A stretch of 64,000 nt of DNA from Methylobacter sp. (GCA_041660285.1 JBAZWN010000008.1:6110-70109); one strand, 5' to 3'. Positions 3,308 to 63,999 are shown, numbered from the stretch's first letter. Program-made: numbers and translations. The notes: generated by a model not told the origin, from the sequence alone.

Positions 3308-3744
3308 TGAAATTTCAACGCAAGAAAAGGGAAAATGTAGATATTACGTTGATCTCAATGATCGATGTGCTTTTTGTGCTGTTGTTGTTCTTCATGGTTT
3401 CTACAACCTTCAACCAACATACGGAAGTCAATATCAAGCTTCCCGAGGCAAACGGGGCGGATGCCGAGCAACATCCAAAAATGGTCACATTGACTATTGG
3501 TGCGGACGGCATTTATTATCTGAATGGTGATGACGGCTTGCCTCATAAGCTGGTTAATCAGAGCGTGGACGCGTTAAAGCAGGAATTGCGCAAGCTTGCA
3601 GAACATTCAGGGGAGATTCCCTTTATCATCAATGCCGACGGCAAAACGCCCCATCAGGCTGTGATTAAAGCATTAGAGGCTGCCAGTGATGCCGGCTTCA
3701 GCCATATCACTTTTGCGGCCCTGCATTCAAAGACCGAACAATGA
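3307..3744 (+). CDS. ExbD/TolR family protein
   Basis: MIDVLFVLLLFFMV transmembrane motif with conserved Asp; INADGKTPHQAV periplasmic motif; overlaps the ExbB-like stop. Confidence 0.92.
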   Translation: MKFQRKKRENVDITLISMIDVLFVLLLFFMVSTTFNQHTEVNIKLPEANGADAEQHPKMVTLTIGADGIYYLNGDDGLPHKLVNQSVDALKQELRKLAEHSGEIPFIINADGKTPHQAVIKALEAASDAGFSHITFAALHSKTEQ

Positions 3745-4739
3745 AAAAAACGCTGGCTCGATGGGCGCTGGATGTCTGGTATAAAGACCCGTTTATTGGC
3801 ACATGGCTGATGCCGCTGGGCTTTTTGTTTTCCGATTTTGTTAAATTCAGGAAATTCTTGTACCGCATCAAGGTGTTAAGAAAACACACCATGCCTGTTC
3901 CGGTTATCGTGGTGGGCAACATCACTGTGGGCGGCACAGGTAAAACGCCGTTGATTATCTACCTGGCTGGGCTTCTCAAGGATGCGGGCTTTAAGCCCGG
4001 CATTATCAGCAGAGGCTACGGAGGGCAAGCCGAATCATGGCCGCAATGGGTAGATGCAAACAGTATGGCGGCACAGGTAGGCGATGAGGCCTTGTTATTA
4101 GCCAGACAAACCGGCTGTCCTGTGGCGGTAGGCCCGTTGAGGGTTGAGGATGCACAGTTGTTGCTCAAGCAATCCGATTGCAATGTCATTTTGTCCGACG
4201 ATGGTTTGCAGCACTATGCATTGAACCGGGATATCGAGATCGCCGTCATTGACGGGGAAAGACGTTTTGGTAACGGCTACTGCCTGCCGGCAGGCCCTTT
4301 GCGCGAAACTATAGACAGATTGCAGAGCGTCGATTTTATCGTCGTTAACGGCGAAAAGTCAGAACCTAATGAGCTTTCCATGCAGATCAGCGGGGACACG
4401 GCAATTAATCTGGTCAGCGGAGAGCAAAAGTCATTGCAGGAGTTTAATGCCGCCGGATGTCACGCTTTGGCGGGCATAGGCAATCCTGACCGGTTTTTCA
4501 GGCTGCTTGAGTCTGCCGGTCTGACCTGCAAAACACACAGTTTCCCGGACCATTATCAATTTCAGCGCGGCGACATCGAATTTGGCGATGACGAACAGGT
4601 GTTAATGACCGAGAAAGATGCGGTAAAATGCACGGCGTTTGCGAGCAAGCAGCATTGGTATATTCCAGTAAAAGCCATTCCTGAACCGGTTTTTTCTGAA
4701 CAATTATTGAAATTATTACGAGAAAAAAACAATGGATAA
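3741..4739 (+). CDS. lpxK: Tetraacyldisaccharide 4'-kinase
   Basis: [14 protein letters not shown]-loop, SRGYG, DDGLQH, TEKDAVK motifs. Confidence 0.97.
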
Positions 4740-4923
4740 AAAATTACTCGATATTCTGGCTTGCCCTTTATGCAAAAGTTCGCTGATTTACGATAAAGCC
4801 AAACAGGAACTTATCTGCAAAGCCGACCATATCGCGTTTCCCATCCGCGATGATATTCCGGTAATGCTTGAAGATGAAGCTCGCGAATTAACTAATGACG
4901 AAATTGACGCATTATCCAAATGA
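4732..4923 (+). CDS. ycaR: Trm112 family protein
   Basis: [11 protein letters not shown]...[11 protein letters not shown] pattern; canonical position between lpxK and kdsB. Confidence 0.93.
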
Positions 4924-5690
4924 CCATGCGTTTTAAGGTAGTCATTCCTGCAAGATACGGTTCGACAAGATTGCCAGGCAAGCCCCTGCTGAACATTGCA
5001 GGCAAGCCGATGATTGCGTATGTCTGTGAGAGGGCTCAGGAAGCCGACGCCGAAGAAATTATCGTAGCGACAGATGATGACAGGATTTTTCAAACCGTCA
5101 GTGATCTGGGCATTAAAGCGGTGATGACGCGCCCGGACCATCAAAGCGGCACGGAAAGAATTGCCGAAGTAGCACAGCAATGCGGCTGGGATGGGGATGA
5201 AATCATCGTTAATCTGCAAGGCGATGAACCGCTTATTCCTTCGGCATATATTCGCGAAGCTGCGGCGGCATTAGCCGGACAGAGGCAAGCGGGCATAGCG
5301 ACACTGGCCGCTAAAATCGAAGACCATGAAGAGATTTTCAATCCAAACGCGGTAAAAGTTGTTTTGAATAATGCCGGTTACGCGCTTTATTTCAGTCGCG
5401 CTCCCATCCCATGGGAAAGAGATCGGTTTACTGCTGCAGGCGGCAAGCCTTCCGGGAAAATGCCTTATCTCAGGCACATCGGCATGTACGCTTATACGGT
5501 TGATTTTTTAAACCGCTACTGCCAGTGGGATGCTTCACCGCTCGAATCGGTTGAGTCCCTGGAGCAACTGAGAATATTGTGGCACGGTGAAGCTGTTCTG
5601 GTGAAAACCGTAGACAAAACCCCTGATGCCGGCGTTGATACCAAGGAAGACTTAATACGCGTGGAGCAGGCATTATACTTGGACCGCTAG
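4920..5690 (+). CDS. kdsB: 3-deoxy-manno-octulosonate cytidylyltransferase (housekeeping copy)
   Basis: [43 protein letters not shown] motifs. Confidence 0.97.
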
Positions 5691-37111: not shown

Positions 37112-38206
37112 CTACTCGTAATAGGCGTTGGTATAGTAACCGTGGTGTTTCACGAGCTCATCACGCTCCGCAGTTTTGAGATCTTCCCTCACCATTTCCT
37201 TAACCAACTCATCGAATGTTGTTTTGGGTTGCCAGCCGAGCTTATCCTTGGCTTTAGAAGGGTCGCCAAGGAGCGTTTCGACTTCAGTGGGACGAAAGTA
37301 ACGTGGATCGACTGAGACAATGCATTTCCCGGATGCGTCATAACCTTTTTCATCCAAGCCCTCACCATCCCAGCGGATCATAATACCTAATTCATTGGCA
37401 GCAATATTAACAAAGTCACGCACGCTATATTGTATCCCGGTGGCAATAACAAAATCTTCCGGTTGCTCCTGTTGCAGCATTAGCCACTGCATTTCAACAT
37501 AGTCTTTAGCATGCCCCCAATCACGTAGAGCATTAAGATTGCCGAGATAAAGGTGTTCCTGCAATCCAAGCTTGATGCGAGCCAATGCACGGGTAATCTT
37601 TCGCGTTACAAAATTCTCTCCTCGAACTGGCGATTCGTGATTGAACAAGATGCCGTTACAAGCATACATACCGTAGGCTTCGCGGTAATTAACCGTAATC
37701 CAATACGCATAAAGCTTGGCGACTGCGTAAGGTGAGCGAGGGTAAAACGGGGTGGTTTCTTTTTGTGGAACCTCTTGTACGAGACCATACAGCTCAGAGG
37801 TGGAAGCCTGATAGAAACGTGTTTTCTTTTCTAACCCAAGAATGCGGATAGCCTCCAACACACGTAAAGCGCCCAATGCGTCAGAATTGGCTGTATACTC
37901 AGGTTCTTCGAACGACACTGCGACGTGGCTTTGTGCGGCCAGATTATAAATTTCAGCCGGCTGCACTTGTTGAATAATTCTGATCAAGCTGCTCGAATCG
38001 GTTAGATCGCCGTGGTGCAGAAAAAAACGCACACCATCCTCGTGCGGATCGCGGTACAAATGGTCGACACGCGCTGTATTAAAGGTTGACGCGCGGCGCT
38101 TAATGCCATGCACTATGTAACCTTTATTTAGAAGAAGCTCAGCCAAATAGGCTCCGTCTTGTCCGGTAACGCCAGTGATCAACGCAACTTTTTTGGTTTC
38201 TCTCAT
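37112..38206 (-). CDS. gmd: GDP-mannose 4,6-dehydratase
   Basis: [47 protein letters not shown]. Confidence 0.97.
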
Positions 38207-45173: not shown

Positions 45174-46421
45174 CTAAGCAACTTTTACTACCTCAACTTT
45201 AGGTAATGGAAACACCAAACTCATACCCGAAAACTTTTTGTTTGCGGTAAAAAATTTCCTGAAATGCCACGGCAACACAATAATGTAATCCGGCTTTTTA
45301 GCAAGCAGCTCCTGTTCTTGAATAATCGGAATCCATGTGCCTGGCGTGTAGCAGCCGAATTTTTCGGGATTTACCTCACCTACAGATTCAACTTCCTTTG
45401 TAGTTAGGCCGCAGTATTGCAACAGCACATTACCCTTGGTTGATGCACCGAGAACTGCTACAGACTCACCTTCAGCATGAACTGCCGCAATGAATTTCAA
45501 TAAATCACTCTTTGTCTGAACCACGCGCTCGGCGAATGCTTGATAAGGCGTCAACGTGTCCAGTCCTCTTGCACGCTCATCGTCGAGAATTTTCTGTATT
45601 GAATAAGCCGCCGTCAAGTCCCCATTCGACTTCGATACCGTTACTGAGAAACTACCCCCATTAATATCGTTAAACTCCACATCAAGAATCTTGAAGCCCA
45701 CTTGATCCGTCATCCATTTGATTTGCCGCAATGCATAAAACTCCAAGTGTTCATGACACACCGTGTCATACGAATTCGTATCCAGCATGGTTGGCATGTA
45801 ACTTTGCTCAAATACCCAAATGCCATCGTCCGCCAGCACGTCATATACCTGACGCATAAAATCCATCGGATCTTCCAGGTCGTAGAACATGGAAAATGAG
45901 GTAACAGCCTTTGCCTTTTGTCTGGGGAAGCGCTCTTTCACCAGGGCGGAAGAAAAGAAATCCGGGATCAGTTGAATGTGTGCAGGGTAATAGTTGCGAA
46001 ATTTAATGCCTGTCGGATCAACACCCACCAACACCAGGCCTGTGGATGGATAAGCTTGTAATGTGGTGCTGTCATTGCTGCCAATATCGATAACGAGATC
46101 ACCCTCACTTAACTCGACAAGACCAAGGATTCGTTTCACCTTGTTGTTAAGATGCTCCACCATGCTGGCATTAAGGCCCGAGCGATAGCCATAGTTTTCA
46201 CCATACATCTCGCCCAAATCGTAGGAATGCTCCATCTGCAACAGCCCGCATACCTCATCTCCACCCGTGCACTTCACCAAGCGCAGAGGGCCGGTCGTGA
46301 CTTTTGCGTCCTTCTCACGTGGAAAAACGCCAGTGAGCATCTGCTCTCCCAAGTCAAGCACACACTCCAGATGCGTATTGCCACAAATCCTGCATTTCTC
46401 AATTTTCTTGTATATCGTCAT
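45174..46421 (-). CDS. NDP-hexose C-methyltransferase
   Basis: N-terminal CRICG...C zinc motif, YGYRS, DIGSNDST SAM motif, YDTVCHEHL, GASTKGN C-terminal domain. Confidence 0.88.
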   Translation of the reverse strand: MTIYKKIEKCRICGNTHLECVLDLGEQMLTGVFPREKDAKVTTGPLRLVKCTGGDEVCGLLQMEHSYDLGEMYGENYGYRSGLNASMVEHLNNKVKRILGLVELSEGDLVIDIGSNDSTTLQAYPSTGLVLVGVDPTGIKFRNYYPAHIQLIPDFFSSALVKERFPRQKAKAVTSFSMFYDLEDPMDFMRQVYDVLADDGIWVFEQSYMPTMLDTNSYDTVCHEHLEFYALRQIKWMTDQVGFKILDVEFNDINGGSFSVTVSKSNGDLTAAYSIQKILDDERARGLDTLTPYQAFAERVVQTKSDLLKFIAAVHAEGESVAVLGASTKGNVLLQYCGLTTKEVESVGEVNPEKFGCYTPGTWIPIIQEQELLAKKPDYIIVLPWHFRKFFTANKKFSGMSLVFPLPKVEVVKVA

Positions 46422-46437
46422 TTGTCTTATCTATTCT

Positions 46438-47403
46438 TCAAATTTTTCCACTTAAGTTCTGCAAATCTGCGTCCACCATCATGTGTACCAGCTCTTTAAA
46501 CTCAATTTCCGGTTTCCAACTTAACTTACTATTGGCTTTGGCCGCACATCCAATCAGTGCCGCGGGCTCAACAGGCCTGTAAACTGATGCATCATCACGC
46601 ACATAATCGCGATAATCGAGTCCCAGATAACTAAAAGCAAACTCGCATAATTCACGAACCGAGTGCGCCTTTCCTGTCGCCACGACATAATCATCCGCAT
46701 ATTCCTGCTGTAGCATTAACCACATGGCACGAACATAGTCGCCTGCATATCCCCAGTCCCGTTGCGCATCCATATTGCCAAGGTGCAACTCCTTTGCCAG
46801 ACCCAGCTTGATCTTTACCGCTTCCTGAGTAATTTTTCTAGTCACAAAACATAAACCGCGACGCGGGCTTTCGTGGTTAAACAAAATTGCCGAACATGCA
46901 AAAAGGCCATAGCGTTGCCGATAAATCCGAATCATCAAATCCGCGTAAAGCTTAGCCACACCATAGGGGCTGCGTGGATTAGCAGGCGTACTTTCAGTTT
47001 GAGGGCTTTCTGTAGCTTCACCAAAAACTTCTCTGCTTGAAGCTTGGCAGAATCGCATATTGGCATCCACTTCACGAATTGCTTCCAATATGCGCGTAAC
47101 AGCCAAACCATTCACCTCACCCACTCCGACAGGGTCATCGTACATACCTGCCCCCGATGAATAACCGGCAAAGTTATAAATTTCCATCGGACGATATTCA
47201 GCCAACACTTCCGTCATGCGGTCCTGATCAAGCATATCCCATGCGATCAACTCGACGCTATTCTTCAGGGCGGCAGGAAACGACTCCTTACTATTTTGAC
47301 TATCTCTCACTGCGCCAATGACACGGTAGCCTTTGGCGAGCAGTAATTCCGCCAAATACGATCCATCCTGCCCTGTTATCCCTGTGATAAGCGCTGTTGG
47401 CAT
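46438..47403 (-). CDS. Second GDP-mannose 4,6-dehydratase-like enzyme
   Basis: TGITGQDG, QASSREVFG, PRSPYGVAK, FNHESP, RDWGYA; clearly divergent from gmd at 37112. Confidence 0.85.
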   Translation of the reverse strand: MPTALITGITGQDGSYLAELLLAKGYRVIGAVRDSQNSKESFPAALKNSVELIAWDMLDQDRMTEVLAEYRPMEIYNFAGYSSGAGMYDDPVGVGEVNGLAVTRILEAIREVDANMRFCQASSREVFGEATESPQTESTPANPRSPYGVAKLYADLMIRIYRQRYGLFACSAILFNHESPRRGLCFVTRKITQEAVKIKLGLAKELHLGNMDAQRDWGYAGDYVRAMWLMLQQEYADDYVVATGKAHSVRELCEFAFSYLGLDYRDYVRDDASVYRPVEPAALIGCAAKANSKLSWKPEIEFKELVHMMVDADLQNLSGKI

Positions 47404-53065: not shown

Positions 53066-54607
53066 TTATTTCGGATTTTCCATATCCTTGAAAATTGCAG
53101 CCTTGAACGTATCAACATCCAGTGGACTAAAAAAATCTCTGCAGTATTGTTTGGCCAACATAAATGCAGTTTCTCCATCCAATGGAGAATTAGCTTCATC
53201 GGTTTCAATCGCATGTTTCAAATCATTAATATTTTCAATATTGGTGTGCCAAGCGCCAAGCTCATACAAAGGGTCTATGCTCATTTCTCCCTGCACATGG
53301 AGATACAGCGGCCTCACCCCAGCAGCGACTGCCTGAATAATGGCCGTCGTTCCTCTGTAAAGCGCCCAGCTACAGCGCGCAATATCAGTATCAAGGTTTT
53401 CTTGGGATAAGATAATATTACCTGGAAGGTCTCGCAGCTTAACGTTATGACTCACCAAAGATTCGAATGTAACGACTGGATGCAGTCGCCAGATAAATTG
53501 AATATCGGGGCATGCCTGCGCGCAATCCAAAGAGAATTCAAACAGAAGATGACATTCACTGGCGATACCTTCGGGAAGAACCAGGCAGGCTCGCTTATTT
53601 GACTGTCCACGAATCTGTGTCGGCGGTAACTCAAATTTATCTGCCTTAAAGCTACGATTGGAGCCTAACACGGAAATCGGAACTCCTTTCAGATCCGGAG
53701 CCAATTCCAATTGCTTCTTTCCGACTGGCCCCGCCGTCAAAATACAATCTGGATTGTATTCGCGCCCAAGGCTGCGCCGAATGGCGTGCTGTAAACAAAA
53801 CACGGCAGCATGCTGATAACCAACACACAACACCTTTGGAGCGCTGCTTCGAGCTGCAGCGAACGCCACTCTTTCCCATGCATGACCTTCATGGATGGTT
53901 ACGACGGCCTTGGGTTTTAACTTGTCCACTAATCTGTTTATCTGTCTGGAAAGCCGTAAAGTTGCCAGTGACTCATTTGTCAGCGCTTCTTGGGATGAGC
54001 GCGAAAGCACTTTTCGAAGCAGGTCTACAGTTTCATTTTTTGCAAGCGTTCTTAACCGAAGCGACTCCATTTTTAAGCGCTGATGAAGAGCGATTTCCTC
54101 GGAATAGCCGAGCGAGCAGGAGAGAATTACCCGTGGTACTGCGCTGTCTTTCCATTTGTACGCGAGAGTCGCCGCTGACTGTTCAGAGTGATTGAGCAGC
54201 GCGATCGCCACTGAATGTCCTTGCCCAACTAGCTCATCAGGCAGTTCACCAAAATAAAAATCGGCCGCATCGCCGGCATGGGACTCATTAAGCAAATGTG
54301 AGACGAACAGAACATCGACCTCGTGAGGAAGTTCTTTTGAAGCAAACCAGAACTCCCCGTCTGAGCGTAATGCTCTTCCAATCTGTCTGACCCACCCTGC
54401 CATGTTACGCAAATCCCGCAACCAGCGGCGACTCAGCGCCTTGATGTCCTTTGTATGCTTGAAAATATCTACATATTTAGAAAGGGTTAGAGGGTGTTCG
54501 CGAATAACATGTAGCCAAGGAACGGCAACACGCTCAATCGTCGAATCCGGTGCCAGCAGTACGCGATCGCAAGCTTCGCATAGCTCTCGATACTGCTCTT
54601 CGTTCAA
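53066..54607 (-). CDS. Probable GT-B glycosyltransferase of the CMP-sugar (sialyl/Kdo transferase-like) type
   Basis: HEG, YQHA, WRLHP (HP motif) and RGTTAIIQAVAAG segments; TTG start; directly after the cytidylyltransferase. Confidence 0.55.
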   Translation of the reverse strand: MNEEQYRELCEACDRVLLAPDSTIERVAVPWLHVIREHPLTLSKYVDIFKHTKDIKALSRRWLRDLRNMAGWVRQIGRALRSDGEFWFASKELPHEVDVLFVSHLLNESHAGDAADFYFGELPDELVGQGHSVAIALLNHSEQSAATLAYKWKDSAVPRVILSCSLGYSEEIALHQRLKMESLRLRTLAKNETVDLLRKVLSRSSQEALTNESLATLRLSRQINRLVDKLKPKAVVTIHEGHAWERVAFAAARSSAPKVLCVGYQHAAVFCLQHAIRRSLGREYNPDCILTAGPVGKKQLELAPDLKGVPISVLGSNRSFKADKFELPPTQIRGQSNKRACLVLPEGIASECHLLFEFSLDCAQACPDIQFIWRLHPVVTFESLVSHNVKLRDLPGNIILSQENLDTDIARCSWALYRGTTAIIQAVAAGVRPLYLHVQGEMSIDPLYELGAWHTNIENINDLKHAIETDEANSPLDGETAFMLAKQYCRDFFSPLDVDTFKAAIFKDMENPK

Positions 54608-54650: not shown

Positions 54651-55415
54651 TCATTCCAGCACCTGCTCAAGCAATGTACGCTGTTCATCGTTGTATCGAA
54701 TGTAATCCAGCACAAGCTCAGCCTCATCAGGTTCATTTACCGAGGGTAAGCTCGGCGTAACAGGGACAGACCGCAGATTGAAGCCATTCTCAATGATGCG
54801 CATTTGCTCTATGAACTCAGCCTGTTCAATCGGTGAGGCGGGAAGCGCCGTGATCTCCATCAAGAAGTCTTTACGATAGGCTATTATTCCAAGAATCTTC
54901 CTCACAAAAGACTGTTGCACATCGAAAGCGCTATAACAGGGCGTCCGACGGAAACAATACAAAATGCGATCGGATGACGAAACAGCGCACTTCACAAAGG
55001 AATGACGATCCAACTCATCCTTGTGTTCGATAGGTCCGGTGGCATTCCATGCATCGCCATCTGGCTCAGCCGTAATTGCTTTTGCAAAAATTTCCATGTG
55101 CCTAGGCAATAACAACGGTTCATCACCCTGTAGCAGCATTACATGAGTGCAATCCACGTCCCTTATCGCCTCGGCAACCCGGGTAGTACCATTAGTGTGC
55201 GTATTGGCCGTCATGACGACCTTTCCGCCAAAGCCGCGTACCACCTCGGCGATCTCCTCGTCGCAGGTCGCTACATACACATCCGACACGACACCGGAAA
55301 GCAAAGCACGCCGACGGACGTGCTCAATCATAGGCAGACCGTGGAAAGGAAACAGGATTTTTCGGGGAAATCTGACCGACGCAAGATGCGCAGGAATAAC
55401 AGCAACAATATTCAT
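54651..55415 (-). CDS. KdsB-like ulosonate cytidylyltransferase (second, divergent copy)
   Basis: IPAHLASVRFPRK, NGTTR, QGDEP, EQMR; clearly homologous to kdsB at 4920. Confidence 0.88.
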   Translation of the reverse strand: MNIVAVIPAHLASVRFPRKILFPFHGLPMIEHVRRRALLSGVVSDVYVATCDEEIAEVVRGFGGKVVMTANTHTNGTTRVAEAIRDVDCTHVMLLQGDEPLLLPRHMEIFAKAITAEPDGDAWNATGPIEHKDELDRHSFVKCAVSSSDRILYCFRRTPCYSAFDVQQSFVRKILGIIAYRKDFLMEITALPASPIEQAEFIEQMRIIENGFNLRSVPVTPSLPSVNEPDEAELVLDYIRYNDEQRTLLEQVLE

Positions 55416-55428
55416 TTGTACCCAACAC

Positions 55429-56178
55429 TCATTGAGGAAAGACACCGCAATCCACATTAATACATTGCCCAGTCATCGCAGATGCTGCATCAGACGTCAA
55501 GAACAAGCTCATTGCAGCCACCTCTGCTCCAGTAGGAAGCCTGCCCAACGCGGCATTTGCCGCTGTAAAATTTGCGATAAACTCTTCTGGATTGCCTTTG
55601 GCAGGCGAAGCAGGGCTATTCAATGCTTCAAGTAACCCGTCTGTGGGAATGAGTACTGGACACAAAGCATTTACCCGAACTCCACGTGGCCCGAGTTCTT
55701 TGGCAAGCGATTGAGTCAACCCATTCATCCCAAACTTGGATGCGCAATAAGCAGAGTTGTTTGAACTTCCACGCTTCCCGGCAATACTGGAAATATTGAT
55801 GATGCATCCACCGTCCTGCATAACACTTGAAGCGGCTTTACAACCCCAGAAAGCCCCTTTTAAGTTGGTGCCAATCAAATCGTCCAGAAATTTTTCATCA
55901 ATATCCGCAATAGGTCGCCATTCCGAAAAACCCGCATTATTGATGTAAACATCCAGCGTTCCTGTTTTTTCGATTGCGGCATCCACCAAGCGACGGTGAG
56001 CGGATTCATCCTGAACGTCCGCAGAAATAAATCTGACCTTATCGCCAAACCGGGTTCCCAATCCAAGCTCCTGCCGTGCCCCCACAATTACGAAATAGCC
56101 GGCATTGACATAAGCTTCTGTAATGTTGAGTCCGATTCCACGGTTTCCTCCCGTGATCACTACTGTTTTTTGCTTCAT
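55429..56178 (-). CDS. SDR family oxidoreductase
   Basis: TGGNRGIG, NNAG, YCASK, DCG C-terminus. Confidence 0.92.
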   Translation of the reverse strand: MKQKTVVITGGNRGIGLNITEAYVNAGYFVIVGARQELGLGTRFGDKVRFISADVQDESAHRRLVDAAIEKTGTLDVYINNAGFSEWRPIADIDEKFLDDLIGTNLKGAFWGCKAASSVMQDGGCIINISSIAGKRGSSNNSAYCASKFGMNGLTQSLAKELGPRGVRVNALCPVLIPTDGLLEALNSPASPAKGNPEEFIANFTAANAALGRLPTGAEVAAMSLFLTSDAASAMTGQCINVDCGVFPQ

Positions 56179-56234: not shown

Positions 56235-57017
56235 CTAGATGGTCATACAAGAAAAGCCGCCATCAACAGCAATCTCCGCGCCTGTAACAAAGCCGGATGC
56301 ATCTGATGCCAGCCATAGGGTCGCGCCAATTAATTCATTTGGCTCCCCATAGCGCTTCATTGGAGTGTGTCCAAGAATAGCAACTTCACGCTCGGGAGTT
56401 ATAAAATTCTTGCGATTCCATTCCGTCGGAAAGAATCCAGGCCGTAACGCGTTAACTCGAACACCTTTCGTGCCCCACTCCCGACCTAGGTTTTGTGTCA
56501 GGTTCTTGATCCCTGCCTTAGCCACGGAATAAGTTATTGCCTTGGAGAGAGGCGGACCTGCAGATGCCGATGAGAGATTGATGATTGATCCGCTGCCTCT
56601 GTTTACCATGTATTCCCCGAATACCTGGCAACCAAGAAAAGTGCCGGTAACCTGTGAGTCTAGAATCGCGTACCACTCTTCAAGGGTTAATTCAAAAAAC
56701 GGTGTCGGCCCGTTAATGCCGGCCCCATTGACAAGAATATCAATCTGGCCAAAGGCTGAAAGCACTTTTTGTAGCGCATCAACGTGATCCTGTTTTTTTC
56801 CAACATCAATGGCAATTGATATTACATTTTCAAAACCCGCTCTTTTCAATTCATCTTCTACAGTCTTTGCCTTTTCCAGTTTTAAGTCCAATATTGCAAC
56901 TTTACACCCGGCACGAGCAAATCCTCTCGCCATTTCGCCACAAAGATGGCCGCCAGCGCCGATCACTACGGCAACCTTGCCTTCCAAATTAAATAAATCA
57001 TTAAGATAAGAATTCAT
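56235..57017 (-). CDS. SDR family oxidoreductase (gluconate 5-dehydrogenase-like)
   Basis: GAGGHLC, VNGAG, YSVAK, PGFFPT, VDGG. Confidence 0.9.
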   Translation of the reverse strand: MNSYLNDLFNLEGKVAVVIGAGGHLCGEMARGFARAGCKVAILDLKLEKAKTVEDELKRAGFENVISIAIDVGKKQDHVDALQKVLSAFGQIDILVNGAGINGPTPFFELTLEEWYAILDSQVTGTFLGCQVFGEYMVNRGSGSIINLSSASAGPPLSKAITYSVAKAGIKNLTQNLGREWGTKGVRVNALRPGFFPTEWNRKNFITPEREVAILGHTPMKRYGEPNELIGATLWLASDASGFVTGAEIAVDGGFSCMTI

Positions 57018-57033
57018 AAAAAACCTTTAATAG

Positions 57034-57819
57034 TTAGCGCATTGATTTGATCATGCCTTGCATCTTTTCTGCCCACTTCCACAACACAAACAGATCGGAA
57101 CTTAATATTGCATAGGTATATCCGAGATCAAACAGGGTCTGAACGCTTTCTTCTGACGCATCGGCTACTTGCGTACCGCAACTCTTGCCAAAGCGTTCGC
57201 AGGCCGCGATCACCTTGCGTGACGCTTCGATCACAAGAGGATGCGACGTCTGCCCTGGCACACCCAAGGAGCCGGAGATATCATACGGCCCCACCATCAC
57301 GCCATCGACTTCGTCGAAGGCGAGTAATTTCTCGATATTCTCAACTGCCTGGATCGACTCAACTTGAATAATGAAACTCGAAGTGTCATTCCAGTTCTGT
57401 ATGTAACTGTCGAAATCAAACCCATAGGCCTGTGCGCGGTTAACGCCATAGCTCCGATTACCCATGGGAGGGTATTTGAGATACCTGATGATCGCTTCTA
57501 CCTCTTCTGGCGTATTAACCATCTGTACCAGCAACCCATCAGCACCCGACTCCAGCAGCGGCTTAAACCAATCGTTCGAATGGGAAACGGGGCGCGGCAA
57601 ACATGGCACCCCCTCACTTTGACAGGCCGAGATGATACGCTGCGCCTGCTCCACGGAAATGGTGGAATGCTCCATGTCAATCGCAATGAAATCAAAACCT
57701 GCACGCGCAAAAGTTTCAGTGATTGAAGGATGCGCGTAGGACACCCAACCTGCAAACAGCCGCTCACGCTGCCGCAACCGCTCTTTTAAAGCAGCTCTTT
57801 TTTCAAATATGTTGTTCAT
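57034..57819 (-). CDS. HpcH/HpaI aldolase family protein
   Basis: IDMEHS, PPMGNRSYG, IQVES, MVGPYDIS.SLG. Confidence 0.9.
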   Translation of the reverse strand: MNNIFEKRAALKERLRQRERLFAGWVSYAHPSITETFARAGFDFIAIDMEHSTISVEQAQRIISACQSEGVPCLPRPVSHSNDWFKPLLESGADGLLVQMVNTPEEVEAIIRYLKYPPMGNRSYGVNRAQAYGFDFDSYIQNWNDTSSFIIQVESIQAVENIEKLLAFDEVDGVMVGPYDISGSLGVPGQTSHPLVIEASRKVIAACERFGKSCGTQVADASEESVQTLFDLGYTYAILSSDLFVLWKWAEKMQGMIKSMR

Positions 57820-57901: not shown

Positions 57902-58327
57902 TTATTCTTTCATCCCAAGCAATGCTTGAACCGCTGGATGAAGGTGCAGCAGGCCGACAAGAGTTCCCTTACCATCCACGACAGGCAGATCCCATATCTG
58001 CTTTTGACCCATCAAACCAACCGCATGCACCAATGTGTCGTCTGGCTGAGTCGTCATGGGCGATCGAATAGCATGTTCGAGTGCATCATCCACAAGCAAT
58101 GCGGAGAATGGTTTTTGTACCTTGAGTAACTTGCGTCGGATATCACCATCCGTGAGAATACCAAGAAGCTTGGTGTCAACATCCACAATACAAGCAATGC
58201 CCAAGCCTGACCGACCCATCTCTTCAAGAGCCTCTTTCATAATAACGGTCTCGCCGATCACCGGAATCCGATTCAGCGGCATCATGACTTCACTGACCTG
58301 CATCGCATTATTTTTCTGGGTGGACAT
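57902..58327 (-). CDS. Stand-alone CBS-pair protein resembling the C-terminus of KdsD
   Basis: GILTDGDIRR and DLPVVD...VGLLHLH motifs; ATG 58327 overlaps the end of the KdsA-like gene; no SIS domain. Confidence 0.85.
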   Translation of the reverse strand: MSTQKNNAMQVSEVMMPLNRIPVIGETVIMKEALEEMGRSGLGIACIVDVDTKLLGILTDGDIRRKLLKVQKPFSALLVDDALEHAIRSPMTTQPDDTLVHAVGLMGQKQIWDLPVVDGKGTLVGLLHLHPAVQALLGMKE

Positions 58328-59189
58328 TGTCTTCTCCATATTTTTCGAGTAATTCAAGGCGCGTCTCATGTATGGCCTTGGCCTGGCCGAGAATATTTTC
58401 CAGATACTGGATATCCAGCACCGTATTGGCATCCGACAATGCATTATCGGGGTCGTCATGGACTTCCATGAACAAGGCGTTGATGCCGCAGGCCACCGCC
58501 GCCCGAACCAGATAAGGGATAAACTCGCGCTGCCCGCCAGAGATATTGCCCATGGAGGTCGGTAACTGAATCGAATGCGTCGCATCAAAACACACCGGAT
58601 AGCCAGTTCTAGCCATTATGGGGAAACAAGTCATATCGTTGACCAACATGTTGTAACCCAAAAAAGTGCCGCGATCAGCAAGCAGAATCTGGTGATTACC
58701 ATTAGCCTCAATCTTCCTTACAGAATTTTTCATATTCCAAGGACTCATAAATTGGCCTTTTTTCAGGTGGACAGGTCTATTCGTTAAAGCTGCAGCCTTC
58801 AATATGGATGTTTGTCTGCACAAATAAGCCGGCACCTGCACCATGTCACAGACTTCCCCAGTCGCCGGTCCCCAAGCTGGTTCTGAAAAATCCGAGACCA
58901 CTGGAATCCCAAATTCATCTCTGATGTCGGCAAGAATGCGCAAACCATCATCCGCACCAAGGCCATGAAAGCTGTCCAGTGAGGATCGGCAATCCTTGTC
59001 ATAACAAGATTTATAAATCCACGAGATACCAATACGACGACAGATATCACTGATTGATTCCGCCATTTTGAAAGCATGATCACGGCTTTCGATTGCACAA
59101 GGACCGCCAATAAACACCAATGGTAGGCGGTCGCCTATTCTCACTTTGGCAACAGAGCCATACCCGACTTCAAGTGTCTTTTTATCCAT
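58308..59189 (-). CDS. KdsA-like (KDO8P synthase family) PEP-dependent synthase, divergent
   Basis: GPCAIES (metal Cys), QVPAYLCRQT, KKGQF, RGTFLGYN, FDATHS, EVHDDP..A.SD. Confidence 0.92.
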   Translation of the reverse strand: MDKKTLEVGYGSVAKVRIGDRLPLVFIGGPCAIESRDHAFKMAESISDICRRIGISWIYKSCYDKDCRSSLDSFHGLGADDGLRILADIRDEFGIPVVSDFSEPAWGPATGEVCDMVQVPAYLCRQTSILKAAALTNRPVHLKKGQFMSPWNMKNSVRKIEANGNHQILLADRGTFLGYNMLVNDMTCFPIMARTGYPVCFDATHSIQLPTSMGNISGGQREFIPYLVRAAVACGINALFMEVHDDPDNALSDANTVLDIQYLENILGQAKAIHETRLELLEKYGEDNVHPEK

Positions 59190-59979
59190 GAAAAACTACC
59201 ATTTTTTGTTCCTGAATACGGAAAATGAAAGGCCTCGCCATTACGAGACGGCTGTTGATAACGATCCTTACTTCTTGCGACTGCTCCACTTGAACCGGAA
59301 ACACATGGGAGCCTCTTGGCCGCAACTGTACCTCTTGGACACCCAAGCTCGCTCCGCTACGCGCTGATAGCACCTGGCAAGCGATGAGTTGATTACGCGA
59401 ACTGGGGTTCACTATTGCCACCTCATACAACGCCGGGCCTGATAGTTCATGCTGAAGTCTGTATTCACGCGGGAAAATGCTGCTCGAACCGAGAAGTGTC
59501 AGTCCTGTGGACTCGCACAGAGAAATTGCATCAAGGCTTCCATGCACATAGCTACGCAAAGGTGCATCTTTATAACGATAACTCACATAGCCTCTTTCTG
59601 TGATAAACGATCCAATGTCCGATATCATTTGGGGGGCGGAGTGAAAGACGCAAAATGTACCGAAAGAACTTTTTGACTCAACCAGGAGTTCAGAAAAATC
59701 GACCGTCTGCCGTTGATTATGAAGCAAAGCCAGACGCTTTTCAAGGAACTGGTTACCGTTACTGTCGAAAAACAGAATAGTCACTGACCGACTGGATGCA
59801 CCTTCACCATCATCAAAAAGTCCCGCAATATCTGTTAGCTCAAAGAATGTCTTCCAGTCTTCAGAATTACGCCACACGAACAGGTCGCTGACAGGCACTC
59901 CAGCTAGTTTGGGTTTTTTAGTGAGCGGCTGCCCGAAGGTCCAAAGCGCCCTCCTTAACTTTTCTATATTGTATCGCAT
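59182..59979 (-). CDS. Hypothetical protein
   Basis: 265-aa ORF translationally coupled on both sides (TAATG overlap at 59979; overlap with the KdsA-like start). Confidence 0.75.
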   Translation of the reverse strand: MRYNIEKLRRALWTFGQPLTKKPKLAGVPVSDLFVWRNSEDWKTFFELTDIAGLFDDGEGASSRSVTILFFDSNGNQFLEKRLALLHNQRQTVDFSELLVESKSSFGTFCVFHSAPQMISDIGSFITERGYVSYRYKDAPLRSYVHGSLDAISLCESTGLTLLGSSSIFPREYRLQHELSGPALYEVAIVNPSSRNQLIACQVLSARSGASLGVQEVQLRPRGSHVFPVQVEQSQEVRIVINSRLVMARPFIFRIQEQKMVVFHG

Positions 59980-60764
59980 TATTGCGCCGCCCTTGAGAAC
60001 CATGTGTTTTTAAGGATTTTCTGAGCCTCCCGTCGCTGTCCGTGGATTACATAGCTCGCTGGTGGGTGGGTATGCTCAAGACTGAGAAACGAACCATCGC
60101 AAGTCTTCGAAAAATACAATGGGATTCCCGACATTTCTCGACAAATAATTAAAGGCAAATCAATTGGACTAAAACCAAGCCCGTCTAGAGCAATGATTGT
60201 TACGTCATTGTTTCTTACCTCAAATTTACGCCTTAACGCTGTGTTCTCAGCATCGTATATTTCCACTTGCGAAGTTCTCGTGACTGGAGAGTTTTCCATG
60301 TTCAGAAATATCAGATAGTTCTCTATCTCTTCACCGAACTGAATAAACGGACAGAAAGTCAACAGTGACCCCGGCGAGGCAAACGAATCAATCTCACCTT
60401 GATAACTGACCAAAGCATTATTCGTTGATAGGCCCAGTGTCGCGCGCCAGGCGGGCATTGCTGTTCGGGGCGCGTCTATCTGTGGCAAGCTATCACTGCG
60501 CGCAGAAAGCTTTGATGTACTGAGCGACAGCAAAGGCAGCACACCTTCGGGAATCACCCCGGAAATCTCCTCAGTGCTGATAGTACGCATTGCACCATGC
60601 GCAAGTACCCCGAGGGATTCGGTTCGCCATGCGCCCTCTTCAGCCCAAGTCAAGCTGACAAATTTCTCTGTGGCATCCCTCGTCTCCCAGTTATTGGGCG
60701 AAAAATTACACAGAGTTGTCCAACCTTGGCAGCCCGGTGCTTTAAGGATAGGGTAATAGGACAT
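59979..60764 (-). CDS. Hypothetical protein
   Basis: 261-aa ORF tightly packed in the operon; EHTHPP near the C-terminus. Confidence 0.75.
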   Translation of the reverse strand: MSYYPILKAPGCQGWTTLCNFSPNNWETRDATEKFVSLTWAEEGAWRTESLGVLAHGAMRTISTEEISGVIPEGVLPLLSLSTSKLSARSDSLPQIDAPRTAMPAWRATLGLSTNNALVSYQGEIDSFASPGSLLTFCPFIQFGEEIENYLIFLNMENSPVTRTSQVEIYDAENTALRRKFEVRNNDVTIIALDGLGFSPIDLPLIICREMSGIPLYFSKTCDGSFLSLEHTHPPASYVIHGQRREAQKILKNTWFSRAAQ

Positions 60765-60775
60765 ATATACCTCGC

Positions 60776-61708
60776 TCAGTTAGAAGTTTTTTGTGCGACA
60801 GCTCTTAACCACCAAGCTGGCTTAGAAGATTCACAATGTGCATTAAAAGGCGCGACTGCCGCACGTTCGAGCGGGTCTGACAACGATTCCATCCCCTGTC
60901 TAACCTCTGCAAAAGGGGCAATCAACCCTATGGAGATTAACTTAGAGCGCAATCTCATCCATTTAGCCTGCAATGCAGAAGCCGAATGCAACCGCTCAAT
61001 CTCTTGGCCGTAATAACTAACTTCTATATTGTCAAACCCTAATGTGCCCAGCAACAGTTGCATGGGTTCCTTATCGAAGAAAAGAAGATGCGGTTCATCG
61101 ATCGGCTTGTGCTCCCAATCCCGGCAGGGAACTTCGATAAAAATACCACCCCCTATGCGCAGGTTTCGGGTGGCATCCTTTAGAAACTCGATGGGATTTG
61201 AGACATGCTCCAGAACATGAGACATCACGACCAAATCGACCGATGCATTTTCTTCCGCCACGGCAGAAGTCTCAACAAGGCGAACCCCCAATTCTCTCAG
61301 AGAGGCATGGCAAGATATATCCGTCTCAACAGCCAGATAGTTAGCCGCCGGATGCTTCACGAGCCAGTTACGCGCAAAAAAACCAGCCCCTGGACCCAGT
61401 TCCAGTAGTTTTGACACATCGATGCGGTACTTATCCAAGTATCGTTCAAGATAGGCCATACGCAAGCGAGCAATACCTGAAAAAAAAGCAGTAGCCCAAG
61501 GTGTGCTCGGTTGACCGCCATGGGCAGTGACGAAATAGCTCGCATTGTAATCGGAAAGCGCCTTGTTGCCGGGCATGGGAGTGGCAAAAACCATACCGCA
61601 TGAACTGCAATGGGCGCGATGCAACCCGTTAAAAGTAGGGTGGGCGCCTCGATATGAACCTCGCACCTCGACATCAACACTCTTGCAAACTGGGCAGGCT
61701 TCGATCAT
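60776..61708 (-). CDS. Class I SAM-dependent methyltransferase with N-terminal zinc motif
   Basis: CPVC...[32 protein letters not shown]. Confidence 0.88.
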
Positions 61709-62313
61709 TTTTCCGTTATCTCTTGGTTGCGATACTTGATGACTTTAGCCGGAACCCCCCCGGCGATGGCCAACGGCGGAACATCTTTGGTAACCACAGC
61801 ACCTGCACCAATTATAGCTCCCCTGCCAATGTGAGTCCCGCCAAGAATCACTGCATTCGCACCTATCCAGACATCGTCATCAATATCAATGTTAAGGGGT
61901 ATATGCCCCTGCTGTCGAATAAAAACATCAGGATTGTCATATCTATGCCCAGCCGTACGCATGACAACATTCGGGCCGATAAGACACGATTCACCAATTC
62001 GAATCTCCCCTCCAACCGATGCATTAAGGTGAACATTCATATTAAACGCCGTATTGGAACCCACCGTGATTGCACCGCATTCAGCCGTGAAAAATGAATT
62101 TTTTCCAATACTGATCAAACCATTAAAGCACATGGTCTGTGGGGAAATAAATTCACAGCCCACGTCAATATTGACCGCCCCGTTTTTTTGAAAGCGTCGG
62201 CCAAACCACCCTCGTCTTATAACGCCGCCTATGCGTCCAGGCATGAATCTGACAATCGACTCTATCCATACAATGACTTCGTTGGCTAGCAAATTAAGCA
62301 TGCCTATCTTCAC
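61705..62313 (-). CDS. Hexapeptide-repeat (LbH) O-acyltransferase
   Basis: [49 protein letters not shown]. Confidence 0.92.
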
Positions 62314-62433: not shown

Positions 62434-63999
62434 TCAAACCACTACTGATTTCAACCAGACTCTAAGCTCATCTTGTCCGCACAATATATCAATCCCATGG
62501 GCAGCTTGATCATCCTTTTGAATCATGCCATTGGGGTCATAGTAGACAGAGGGCTTACCTAGCGCCTGCCCTAAAAGTGCAGTAGAGGTAAAAGGCGTAG
62601 AGATAACCGCAATGCAACCTTCAATAACGTTGACTGCTGCAACATCTGGATCAACATGAATGCAATGCGGAAGTTTTTCGAATTCTTCAACAAATCGTCT
62701 GTACGCTGGGTGAGCCAATCTCCCAATATCACGCTTGCGTTTCAGTGCAAGGGAACAGTCGGCTTCTTTCAATATTTCGTGAACATCAGTCAAAAACTGA
62801 TTTGCTGTCGTCGGAGTGTAGTAATCAAAATCTATAGCCAGCGTGTTATAAAAAACAGCGCGGACAGGCTGAACATCGAATACCGCAACCGTTCTTGCCG
62901 GCAATGCGGGCATTTTATTTGTGTTGTCGCTAAAGTGAATGGAACCAACAACATCAATACACGGATCTCCGCAGGCCACCCGGCGCACAAAATCCGCCTG
63001 ATATTCATCCCATACCAGATAACGAGGCCACGTCATTGCTTGATACCCGCAATATGCCCTTAGCGGATCACGCCCCGGTCGTTTGAACGCCTCTATGTTC
63101 GTCGAGTAGAAATAAAGGATTATGCGCGATCCTTTAGCCTCGGCCTCATAGGTCCAAAGGGGGCGGTATATCCAGCTAGAATTATGAAACAAGTAATCCC
63201 GAGCAAGTTGATCAGATTGATGCATACGCATTAGAGCGGCTTTCGATGCCTCACTAAGCAGCACAGCATGCCACCAACGCCCACGGAAAAAATCAATCGT
63301 TGCAATAACGCTTGCAGCTACTCCCCATCCCAAGTAACGGAACAACGTTGTGAGTTTGGTTGGTGGCGGTATTGCTGATCGCAAGGAGAATAAAGGCACC
63401 CCCATAGCCCTAGCCTGAGTGACACTTTTAACTGTGTGACTGATCGCATCAAGTTCGCTAGTCCGCCCCGGCCAACGCTGGTACCAGGAAATGATGTCCT
63501 GACCGAACCCATCTTCGGGTGAACGAGGGAAATTATTTACTGACAAGCCATCAAAAAAAGCATAGCGACCAAGCACAGGAAGCGAGGGCTTAATAATTTC
63601 CTTGATGCCCCTCAAGAAAGTTTTTCCGATGGACATGATGCCGTAAGCGAGAAAAATAATGACCAAAGCGTTCCACAAAACCGTAGACCTAACGGTTGCA
63701 ACCTCGAACCCATGCTCATTTACAATTTTACGCCACTCAGGCGGCAATGGATAAACTACCTTTGCCCCCATTTTACCATGCGTATAAAGGATTGCCTTTC
63801 CGAATTGAACACCTGCCAAGCGCATCAGTAGGTATTGCCGAATAGCCAGTTCTGCACTATTAGCCGCTGCACCAAAAATAATTTTTGAATAGAATCCGTC
63901 TTTGATGCACCCGGTTGTAGTAAACGCAATATTTGCTGTATTTATTTTTTCCAATGAATCGGATTTTTTCAGTACGCGATGCCCGCGTAATACTCGACG
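62434..63999 (-). CDS. Polysaccharide biosynthesis PFTS-motif protein (5' end outside window)
   Basis: ISTPFTST motif near the C-terminus; the frame stays open upstream of the listed TTG (RRVLRGHRVLKKSDSLEKI...) to the window edge. Confidence 0.8.
   Translation of the reverse strand, partial: RRVLRGHRVLKKSDSLEKINTANIAFTTTGCIKDGFYSKIIFGAAANSAELAIRQYLLMRLAGVQFGKAILYTHGKMGAKVVYPLPPEWRKIVNEHGFEVATVRSTVLWNALVIIFLAYGIMSIGKTFLRGIKEIIKPSLPVLGRYAFFDGLSVNNFPRSPEDGFGQDIISWYQRWPGRTSELDAISHTVKSVTQARAMGVPLFSLRSAIPPPTKLTTLFRYLGWGVAASVIATIDFFRGRWWHAVLLSEASKAALMRMHQSDQLARDYLFHNSSWIYRPLWTYEAEAKGSRIILYFYSTNIEAFKRPGRDPLRAYCGYQAMTWPRYLVWDEYQADFVRRVACGDPCIDVVGSIHFSDNTNKMPALPARTVAVFDVQPVRAVFYNTLAIDFDYYTPTTANQFLTDVHEILKEADCSLALKRKRDIGRLAHPAYRRFVEEFEKLPHCIHVDPDVAAVNVIEGCIAVISTPFTSTALLGQALGKPSVYYDPNGMIQKDDQAAHGIDILCGQDELRVWLKSVVV

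Follow-up and report, generated by a model that had tools for sequence, protein, structure and literature searches.

Here, we describe KdsA*, a paralogue of the metal-type KDO8P synthase KdsA (KDO8P, the 8-phosphate of 3-deoxy-D-manno-octulosonate), encoded on the minus strand of a 64,000-nucleotide stretch of Methylobacter sp. DNA (GCA_041660285.1 JBAZWN010000008.1:6110-70109; hereafter the window). KANRS is treated as a signature of KDO8P synthases, and in KdsA* it is replaced by KDCRS. The gene and its neighbours lie inside a minus-strand glycan locus of about 30 kb that starts past the fab genes near 33.9 kb (Table 1). Its clade, residue pattern and gene context suggest a synthase of an activated ulosonic acid that may use an aldose phosphate other than arabinose 5-phosphate (A5P).

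Table 1. Features of the window referred to in the text, with positions counted from its first nucleotide
Feature	Position	Strand	Remarks
lpxK	3741-4739		In window
Canonical kdsB	4920-5690	+	TIGR00466, 315 bits
Unclassified 513-amino-acid (aa) protein, candidate transferase for the cytidine monophosphate (CMP)-sugar	53066-54607	-	No Pfam/NCBIfam match
KdsB*, KdsB-like cytidylyltransferase	54651-55457	-	TIGR00466, 120 bits (cut-off 155); second equivalog model, 191.9 (193)
Short-chain dehydrogenase/reductase (SDR) 2, glucose-1-dehydrogenase / FabG-like	55429-56178	-
SDR 1, mannonate oxidoreductase / gluconate-5-dehydrogenase / KduD-like	56235-57017	-	Median 73% identity across loci
HpcH/HpaI-family class II (pyruvate) aldolase	57034-57819	-	Optional trio; PF03328, 103 bits; far under all NCBIfam equivalog cut-offs
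Stand-alone CBS pair, KdsD/KpsF type	57902-58327	-	141 aa; PF00571 x2; TIGR00393 positions 155-268 only, no SIS domain
KdsA*, metal-type KDO8P-synthase paralogue, putatively remodelled aldose-phosphate sub-site	58308-59189	-	293 aa; NF003543, TIGR01362, PF00793
PAYLCR, residues 120-125 of KdsA*	58815-58832	-	Replaces PAFLCR
KDCRS motif (K65 D66 C67 R68 S69) of KdsA*	58983-58997	-	Canonical KANRS; codons AAG GAT TGC CGA TCC (reverse complement)
GPCAIES, residues 29-35 of KdsA*	59085-59105	-	Metal-binding Cys31 (A. aeolicus Cys11)
u273, all-beta protein	59182-60003	-	No family match; AlphaFold2 (AF2) pLDDT 89.6
u261, all-beta protein	59979-60764	-	Invariant E-H-x-H-P-P; AF2 pLDDT 87.4
S-adenosylmethionine (SAM) methyltransferase	60776-61708	-	Probable tailoring enzyme; homologue (c14 or c13) in or beside the cassette elsewhere
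Hexapeptide acetyltransferase	61705-62313	-	Probable tailoring enzyme; homologue (c14 or c13) in or beside the cassette elsewhere
PFTS-motif polysaccharide biosynthesis protein	62434-63954	-	TIGR04417, 368 bits (cut-off 100)

The KdsA* gene and its product

Reading the reverse complement of the 293-aa open reading frame (ORF) gives YKSCYDKDCRSS for residues 59-70, and bears out the original prediction that KDCRS stands in place of KANRS, that PAFLxR is changed to PAYLCR and that the metal-binding Cys of GPCAIES is kept. The canonical KdsA of the same genome has YKSSFDKANRSS, PAFLCR and AGTCVIES, and its gene lies between pyrG and eno (G000 C27; L001 1507-2340; 444.5 bits). Since the genome holds this copy as well as a canonical kdsB, KdsA* is a true paralogue.

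KdsA* scores above two NCBIfam KdsA equivalog models, with 336.5 bits for NF003543 (cut-off 242) and a marginal 321.1 bits for TIGR01362 (cut-off 314), matches the TIM-barrel family PF00793 (DAHP_synth_1) with 206 bits, and shares 45-52% identity with solved structures of metal-dependent KDO8P synthases (KDO8PS). Models for 3-deoxy-D-arabino-heptulosonate 7-phosphate synthase (DAH7PS) fall far under their cut-offs (TIGR01361, 117 against 268; NF006421, 132 against 335). The five-residue KDCRS loop is neither the shorter KPR(S/T) loop of type I-beta DAH7PS nor the KANR(S/T) loop of the A5P sub-site.

A distinct clade and its spread

Identity to KdsA* is 84% or more for each of the 120 nearest 90%-identity clusters. 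GPCAIE or GPCALE is found in 120/120, and KDCRS together with PAYLCR is present in each of the 119 that span these motifs, one cluster being without the stretch. Across 188 clade members, D66 is conserved in 100% and C67 in 99%. An exhaustive phmmer search against 1.84 billion 50%-identity representative proteins recovers the clade as one 50%-identity cluster (594 bits) plus a few fragments, followed by a next match at 298 bits and 52% identity, and in an alignment of the 150 best 50%-identity representatives a Cys at the KANRS Asn position is confined to the clade. A maximum-likelihood tree with 25 sampled members shows the clade to be monophyletic (SH-aLRT 99), with a stem of 0.88 substitutions/site and short inner branches (0.03-0.34). 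The tree conflicts with taxonomy, joining Balneolaceae with Polaromonas, Thermodesulfovibrionia with Syntrophales, and Flavobacteriaceae with an enterobacterial metagenome-assembled genome (MAG).

In a scan of one genome per species, 235 species carry a KdsA* relative; the locus and synteny counts given below refer to the best 80 of these, whose relatives are 72-91% identical to KdsA* and fall into at least 10 phyla. Hosts among the best 80 include Alpha-, Beta- and Gammaproteobacteria, Magnetococcales, SAR324, Bacteroidota, Leptospira, Nitrospirota, Thermodesulfobacteriota, Calditrichota, Balneolota, Prochlorococcus and Ca. Planktophila (Actinomycetota). Only 1/121 Methylococcaceae genomes, the present one, carries KdsA*, and the 120 others, from 36 genera, have the canonical copy only (43-49% identity). 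In a search for a carrier of known glycan structure, no match was found in 5,426 complete E. coli genomes, and KdsA* is absent from the plasmids of PLSDB, which hold only kdsA homologues of <60% identity. High identity across phyla, together with absence from the host family, argues for a horizontally mobile accessory gene.

Two other kinds of KdsA relative were noted in these searches. Representatives with variant loops (KDNRS/T, KDWRS, KSDRS, KSNRS and KGNRT in P0184, P0192, P0198, P0247, P0257, P0169 and P0202) often also alter the preceding FDK, sit on long branches dispersed over the tree, and may be further independent specificity switches. Rhodobacterales plasmids (Sagittula, Roseivivax; matches H1, H2 and H7) carry kdsA-kdsB pairs that are <50% identical to KdsA*; judged by this comparison, they form a different sort of accessory Kdo module, separate from the KDCRS clade.

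Residues changed and kept

Residues of the 188 clade members were compared with those of 65 full-length canonical representatives, the host's own KdsA and A. aeolicus (Aa) KDO8PS, with substitutions given in Aa numbering. A47D and N48C are the changes within the KANRS loop, where the canonical conservation of 100% at both positions follows from how the canonical set was chosen; conservation at all other positions is independent of that choice. Clade-fixed replacements elsewhere are S43C (canonical S 100%; KdsA* residue C62), H83S (H 100%; S102), R56H (R 90%; H75) and D109S (D 90%; S128), and F103Y gives the Tyr of PAYLCR, present in 99% of the clade, compared with Phe in 82% and Tyr in 3% of the canonical representatives. 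These five replacements are 94-100% fixed. G191T/G192S in the L7 loop and D133N are also altered, and the clade has an extra conserved C-terminal tail, GEDNVH.

The ligands for phosphoenolpyruvate (PEP) binding and catalysis are kept (K60, K65, K143, R173 and H205; Aa K41, K46, K124, R154 and H185), as are the phosphate ligands R68, S69 and R125 (Aa R49, S50 and R106) and the class II metal site C31, H205, E242 and D253 (Aa Cys11, His185, Glu222 and Asp233). Modelling of the N. meningitidis KDO8PS places Asn57, Arg58, Asp90, Pro110, Phe112 and Leu113 in the A5P sub-site and Lys50, Lys55, Lys133, Arg163 and His197 on the PEP moiety (PMC6650799); Asn57, Arg58, Asp90 and Phe112 correspond to Aa N48, R49, D81 and F103. 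The contacts of Asn57 and Arg58 (PMC6650799) lend partial support to the earlier claim that KANRS selects A5P, for which no further support was found in the literature searched. From barrel geometry, H83, two residues past D81 on the same strand, should face the A5P pocket, and S43, two residues past K41, would likewise lie on the A5P-pocket side. The picture that emerges is of PEP, metal and phosphate machinery that is intact and of an aldose sub-site that appears to have been rebuilt. SDAN in place of SDGP was also considered as a specificity change and rejected, as A. aeolicus KDO8PS itself has SDAS.

The loss of residues that are invariant elsewhere might also mark a decaying or non-catalytic paralogue, such as a scaffold or regulatory pseudo-enzyme. 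This explanation has very little probability for a protein with an intact ORF, no catalytic or metal ligand missing, and 72-91% identity over 10 or more phyla; its replaced residues are themselves invariant, which argues for strong purifying selection. KdsA* has the marks of an accessory gene that moves horizontally under such selection, and on this pattern its KDCRS motif is neither chance nor decay.

The conserved cassette

A CBS gene lies directly 3' of KdsA*, on the same strand and at a spacing of -7 to +77 nt, in 79/79 loci with downstream sequence. In the window, the CBS gene starts 20 nt ahead of the KdsA* stop, and the stop of u273 overlaps the KdsA* start by 8 nt, so that translational coupling is predicted on both sides. 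No SIS-domain isomerase stands beside KdsA* in the window or in any of the 79 loci, where only the CBS pair is found. Among the 60 loci with at least 6 kb of downstream sequence, KdsB* is present in 52, the SDRs in 47, HpcH in 44, and the 513-aa protein, after KdsB*, in 34. Upstream of KdsA*, the PFTS-motif protein occurs in 25/80 loci, u273 and u261 accompany KdsA* in 21/80, and a KdsC-family HAD phosphatase lies immediately upstream in 9/80, both Prochlorococcus loci among them; the window itself has no KdsC-family HAD phosphatase. The test put forward with the original prediction, whether KDCRS defines a clade tied to this gene set, thus has a positive answer, the clade being distinct and conserved and the gene set fixed.

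A minimal cassette, KdsA*-CBS-KdsB*, is found in at least 10 genomes without an HpcH orthologue genome-wide (paralogues of at most 35% identity only). The HpcH/SDR/SDR trio was rejected as a supplier of substrate on this ground, and would instead tailor the product. Inserts in related loci include a NanM-like sugar O-methyltransferase (about 25 loci), FkbM and other methyltransferases, an acetyltransferase, a PhyH-like dioxygenase and a radical SAM/SPASM enzyme. In one sub-variant (cluster c30; L060, L064, L067, L069, L075 and L077), the radical SAM/SPASM enzyme follows KdsA*-CBS in place of the HpcH/SDR trio.

The 513-aa and PFTS-motif proteins, which have no assigned glycosyltransferase family, are candidate transferases or polymerases for a CMP-ulosonic acid. 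AF2 models of u273 and u261 (pLDDT 89.6 and 87.4, pTM 0.85) are both two-domain and all-beta, with invariant residues D40, H121, R137, H154 and H272 in u273 and E124, E230, H231 and H233 in u261. Searches gave neither protein a meaningful fold match in the PDB nor a Pfam or NCBIfam family, and the two have no detectable homology to each other. They were considered as substrate suppliers (isomerase, kinase), and are present in 21/80 loci only, with no PDB fold match; they are possibly new metal-dependent tailoring enzymes. Elsewhere in the glycan locus of the window (45174-47403 and 37112-38206, minus strand), a second, divergent GDP-mannose-4,6-dehydratase-like gene is present besides the canonical GMD and adjoins a zinc-ribbon NDP-hexose C-methyltransferase (PF08421/PF08484), which suggests that the same locus makes a C-methyl-branched deoxy sugar.

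Parts of the cassette bear on a substrate larger than a pentose phosphate. A hexose 6-phosphate (mannose, glucose or glucosamine 6-phosphate) would be turned into a Kdn-like or aminated nonulosonic acid 9-phosphate by an enzyme other than NeuB; less likely still, erythrose 4-phosphate would yield a heptulosonate. The cassette phosphatase scores nearly equally as KdsC (154 bits, cut-off 107) and as Kdn-9-P phosphatase (147 bits), the NanM-like O-methyltransferase recurs as noted, and NeuB-type nonulosonic acid (NulO) genes are found in many of the same loci (c7, NeuB; c16, CMP-NulO synthetase). Four of the substitutions lead to smaller side chains (N48C, H83S, R56H and D109S), and the new Asp66 could pair with an amino group. 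Yet the K-x-x-R-S loop has the length of that in KDO8PS, G191T/G192S and F103Y add bulk, and the cytidylyltransferase is closest to KdsB and not to NeuA or PseF. We consider nonulosonic acid synthesis from a hexose phosphate improbable, and a hexose 6-phosphate or erythrose 4-phosphate, taken together, rather improbable as the substrate.

Carrier genomes without a detected Kdo pathway

KdsD was above cut-off in 41 of the 65 carrier genomes searched and in none of the remaining 24. KdsD-type SIS proteins, canonical KdsA and WaaA were all undetected in two Prochlorococcus single-amplified genomes (SAGs; 1.7 Mb each, full genome size), four Devosia-type genomes (3.7-5.5 Mb), one Ca. Planktophila and several flavobacterial SAGs. 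LpxC is kept in all of these carriers with the exception of Planktophila. Both Prochlorococcus loci encode a KdsC-like protein, KdsA*, the CBS protein and then KdsB*, with an ABC-transporter gene and the HpcH/SDR trio in between as well in one of them (L053); by gene content, the Prochlorococcus cassette is a Kdo-type pathway minus the isomerase. KdsA* is thus found independently of the A5P isomerases (KdsD/GutQ/KpsF) and WaaA, in a set of genomes of which some assemblies are incomplete. Given complete assemblies, the cassette is not serving the Kdo of the lipopolysaccharide (LPS) core in these hosts, and they have no known route to A5P. As a separate observation, genomes with LpxC but no detectable WaaA (PF04413), KdsD or canonical KdsA (Devosia-type G006, G157, G158 and G145; flavobacterial SAGs/MAGs G013, G169 and G176) suggest a Kdo-less LPS in these lineages, or else assembly gaps or divergent enzymes.

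KdsA* might still be an ordinary second KDO8P synthase that condenses PEP and A5P into Kdo for a capsule, O-antigen or other glycan, the motif changes affecting regulation, kinetics or the fit to the CBS protein; KpsF and KpsU are such Kdo-pathway duplicates of group 2 capsules. Profile scores that exceed the cut-offs of the KdsA equivalogs, the complete set of catalytic, metal and phosphate ligands, the KdsB-like, sometimes KdsC-like and KdsD-derived neighbours, and the presence of KdsD in 41/65 carriers are all as expected of an ordinary enzyme. It would not be expected that the Asn and Ala of KANRS, S43 and H83, invariant in the canonical enzymes sampled, should be replaced and then frozen in one clade, nor that the cassette should occur in Prochlorococcus, Devosia and Planktophila genomes without a detectable A5P isomerase. 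E. coli without KdsD and GutQ is an A5P auxotroph, so a promiscuous supply of A5P is not expected either. An ordinary KDO8P synthase is unlikely on this evidence, though a serious contender.

Proposed function

With a probability of roughly 0.55, KdsA* carries out the committed step of a mobile pathway to a CMP-ulosonic acid, with an aldose phosphate that is not KdsD-made A5P as its substrate; that the substrate is not A5P, taken by itself, is at least slightly favoured. From gene content and residues we infer the substrate, what the CBS protein does, and by which reactions and in which sequence the product is tailored, as follows. PEP would be condensed with a sugar-phosphate aldehyde as in metal-dependent KDO8PS, and the rebuilt aldose sub-site (A47D, N48C, S43C, H83S, R56H, F103Y, D109S and G191T/G192S) would accept an aldose phosphate already in the cell. 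A pentose 5-phosphate is favoured because the five-residue length of the K-x-x-R-S loop and both phosphate-binding arginines are kept. Ribose 5-phosphate (R5P), the C2 epimer of A5P, is the leading candidate, tentatively held, and would give a 5-epi-Kdo-type octulosonate 8-phosphate.

The CBS protein would be what is left of a KdsD whose SIS domain was lost after the isomerase had become dispensable. Because its coupling to KdsA* is obligate, it is now most likely a separate regulatory subunit, which would gate the drain on PEP and a central sugar phosphate, with a nucleotide or the CMP-sugar, for example, as ligand. It is possible, though doubtful, that KdsA* and the CBS protein form a two-subunit, allosterically gated synthase of PEP and R5P or another central aldose phosphate. 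The product would be dephosphorylated by a KdsC-type phosphatase, which some hosts encode within the cassette, optionally modified by the HpcH aldolase, the two SDRs and the O-methyl- and acetyltransferases, activated by KdsB*, and transferred by the 513-aa and PFTS proteins. The end product would be a 3-deoxy-2-ulosonic acid, activated with CMP and added as a decoration to a variable surface polysaccharide.

Several points weigh against a non-A5P pathway. KdsA* passes both KdsA equivalog cut-offs, its partners derive from KdsB, KdsC and KdsD, consistent with plain Kdo synthesis, and A5P is available in most hosts, given the 41/65 with KdsD. Many of the carriers without KdsD are MAGs or SAGs and possibly incomplete, and they may have a non-SIS A5P isomerase. 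R5P is a leading guess chosen solely for loop length and metabolite availability, A. aeolicus KDO8PS reportedly binds R5P unproductively, and several exchanges for less bulky residues (N to C, H to S, R to H and D to S) could instead enlarge the pocket for a hexose 6-phosphate. The original prediction that the motif changes strongly suggest a new aldose-phosphate specificity has gained from at least five more aldose-side changes and from the carriers without isomerase, and its wording goes beyond what sequence by itself can say about specificity.

If the change in specificity is true, the clade would show how substrate choice evolves in the DAH7PS/KDO8PS superfamily, and the pathway would be a KdsD-independent route to an undescribed ulosonic acid, such as a 3-deoxy-D-altro-octulosonate derivative. 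This new acidic sugar would belong to the variable glycans on the surface of environmental bacteria that are very abundant, ocean plankton included, and would be displayed on Prochlorococcus, SAR11/SAR116, SAR324, marine Flavobacteria, freshwater acI Actinobacteria, Leptospira and many soil and groundwater bacteria. Such surface glycans bear on recognition by phages and grazers and on marine dissolved organic matter. If the two-subunit arrangement is true, KdsA* would be the first synthase of the DAH7PS/KDO8PS superfamily with a detached regulatory subunit. Sequence sources name KdsA* a KDO 8-P synthase, and annotation models name it '3-deoxy-8-phosphooctulonate synthase'. Because it exceeds the curated cut-offs, automated annotation can give the false impression of a Kdo/LPS-core pathway in organisms such as Prochlorococcus, Devosia or Actinobacteria (Planktophila).

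Comparison with known systems

A literature search found no published description of the KDCRS clade, its CBS partner or the cassette. The closest known enzymes are the class II KDO8P synthases KdsA (A. aeolicus PDB 1FWN series, Brucella 3FS2 and Legionella 6MDY), which share the PF00793 TIM-barrel and 45-52% full-length identity with KdsA*, as well as the same Cys/His/Glu/Asp metal site, PEP Lys/Arg/His residues, phosphate Arg-Ser and inter-subunit Arg. KdsA* differs from them in KDCRS, S43C, H83S, R56H, F103Y, D109S, G191T/G192S and the GEDNVH tail, and in its separate CBS protein, its horizontal spread and its presence without KdsD or WaaA. Set beside the functional family KdsA (EC 2.5.1.55), it agrees in profile score and in catalytic and metal ligands, and departs in the KANRS loop, in S43/H83 and in the dependence on KdsD and WaaA.

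The cassette resembles the CMP-Kdo pathway KdsD-KdsA-KdsC-KdsB, and KpsF/KpsU, in uniting synthase, cytidylyltransferase and sometimes HAD phosphatase families in one operon, and its CBS pair is clearly derived from KdsD/KpsF, but it has no SIS isomerase domain. It also has optional HpcH, two SDRs, methyl- and acetyltransferases or a radical SAM enzyme between synthase and cytidylyltransferase, and each of the three cassette enzymes is a diverged paralogue of its housekeeping counterpart.

Type I-beta DAH7PS (PDB matches 1RZM, 3NVT and 5J6F) belongs to the same superfamily and is a precedent for an allosteric module added to the condensation of PEP and an aldose phosphate. Its regulators are fused, an ACT domain in Thermotoga maritima and chorismate mutase (CM) in Bacillus/Listeria. 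The type I-beta enzymes thus combine a fused ACT/CM domain with KPR(S/T), whereas KdsA* has a separate CBS-pair polypeptide and KDCRS. The NeuB family (Neu5Ac, legionaminic, pseudaminic and Kdn-9-P synthases) likewise makes PEP-dependent ulosonic acids for CMP activation, encoded in variable surface-glycan loci, but is an unrelated sequence family (PF03102, compared with PF00793 for KdsA*).

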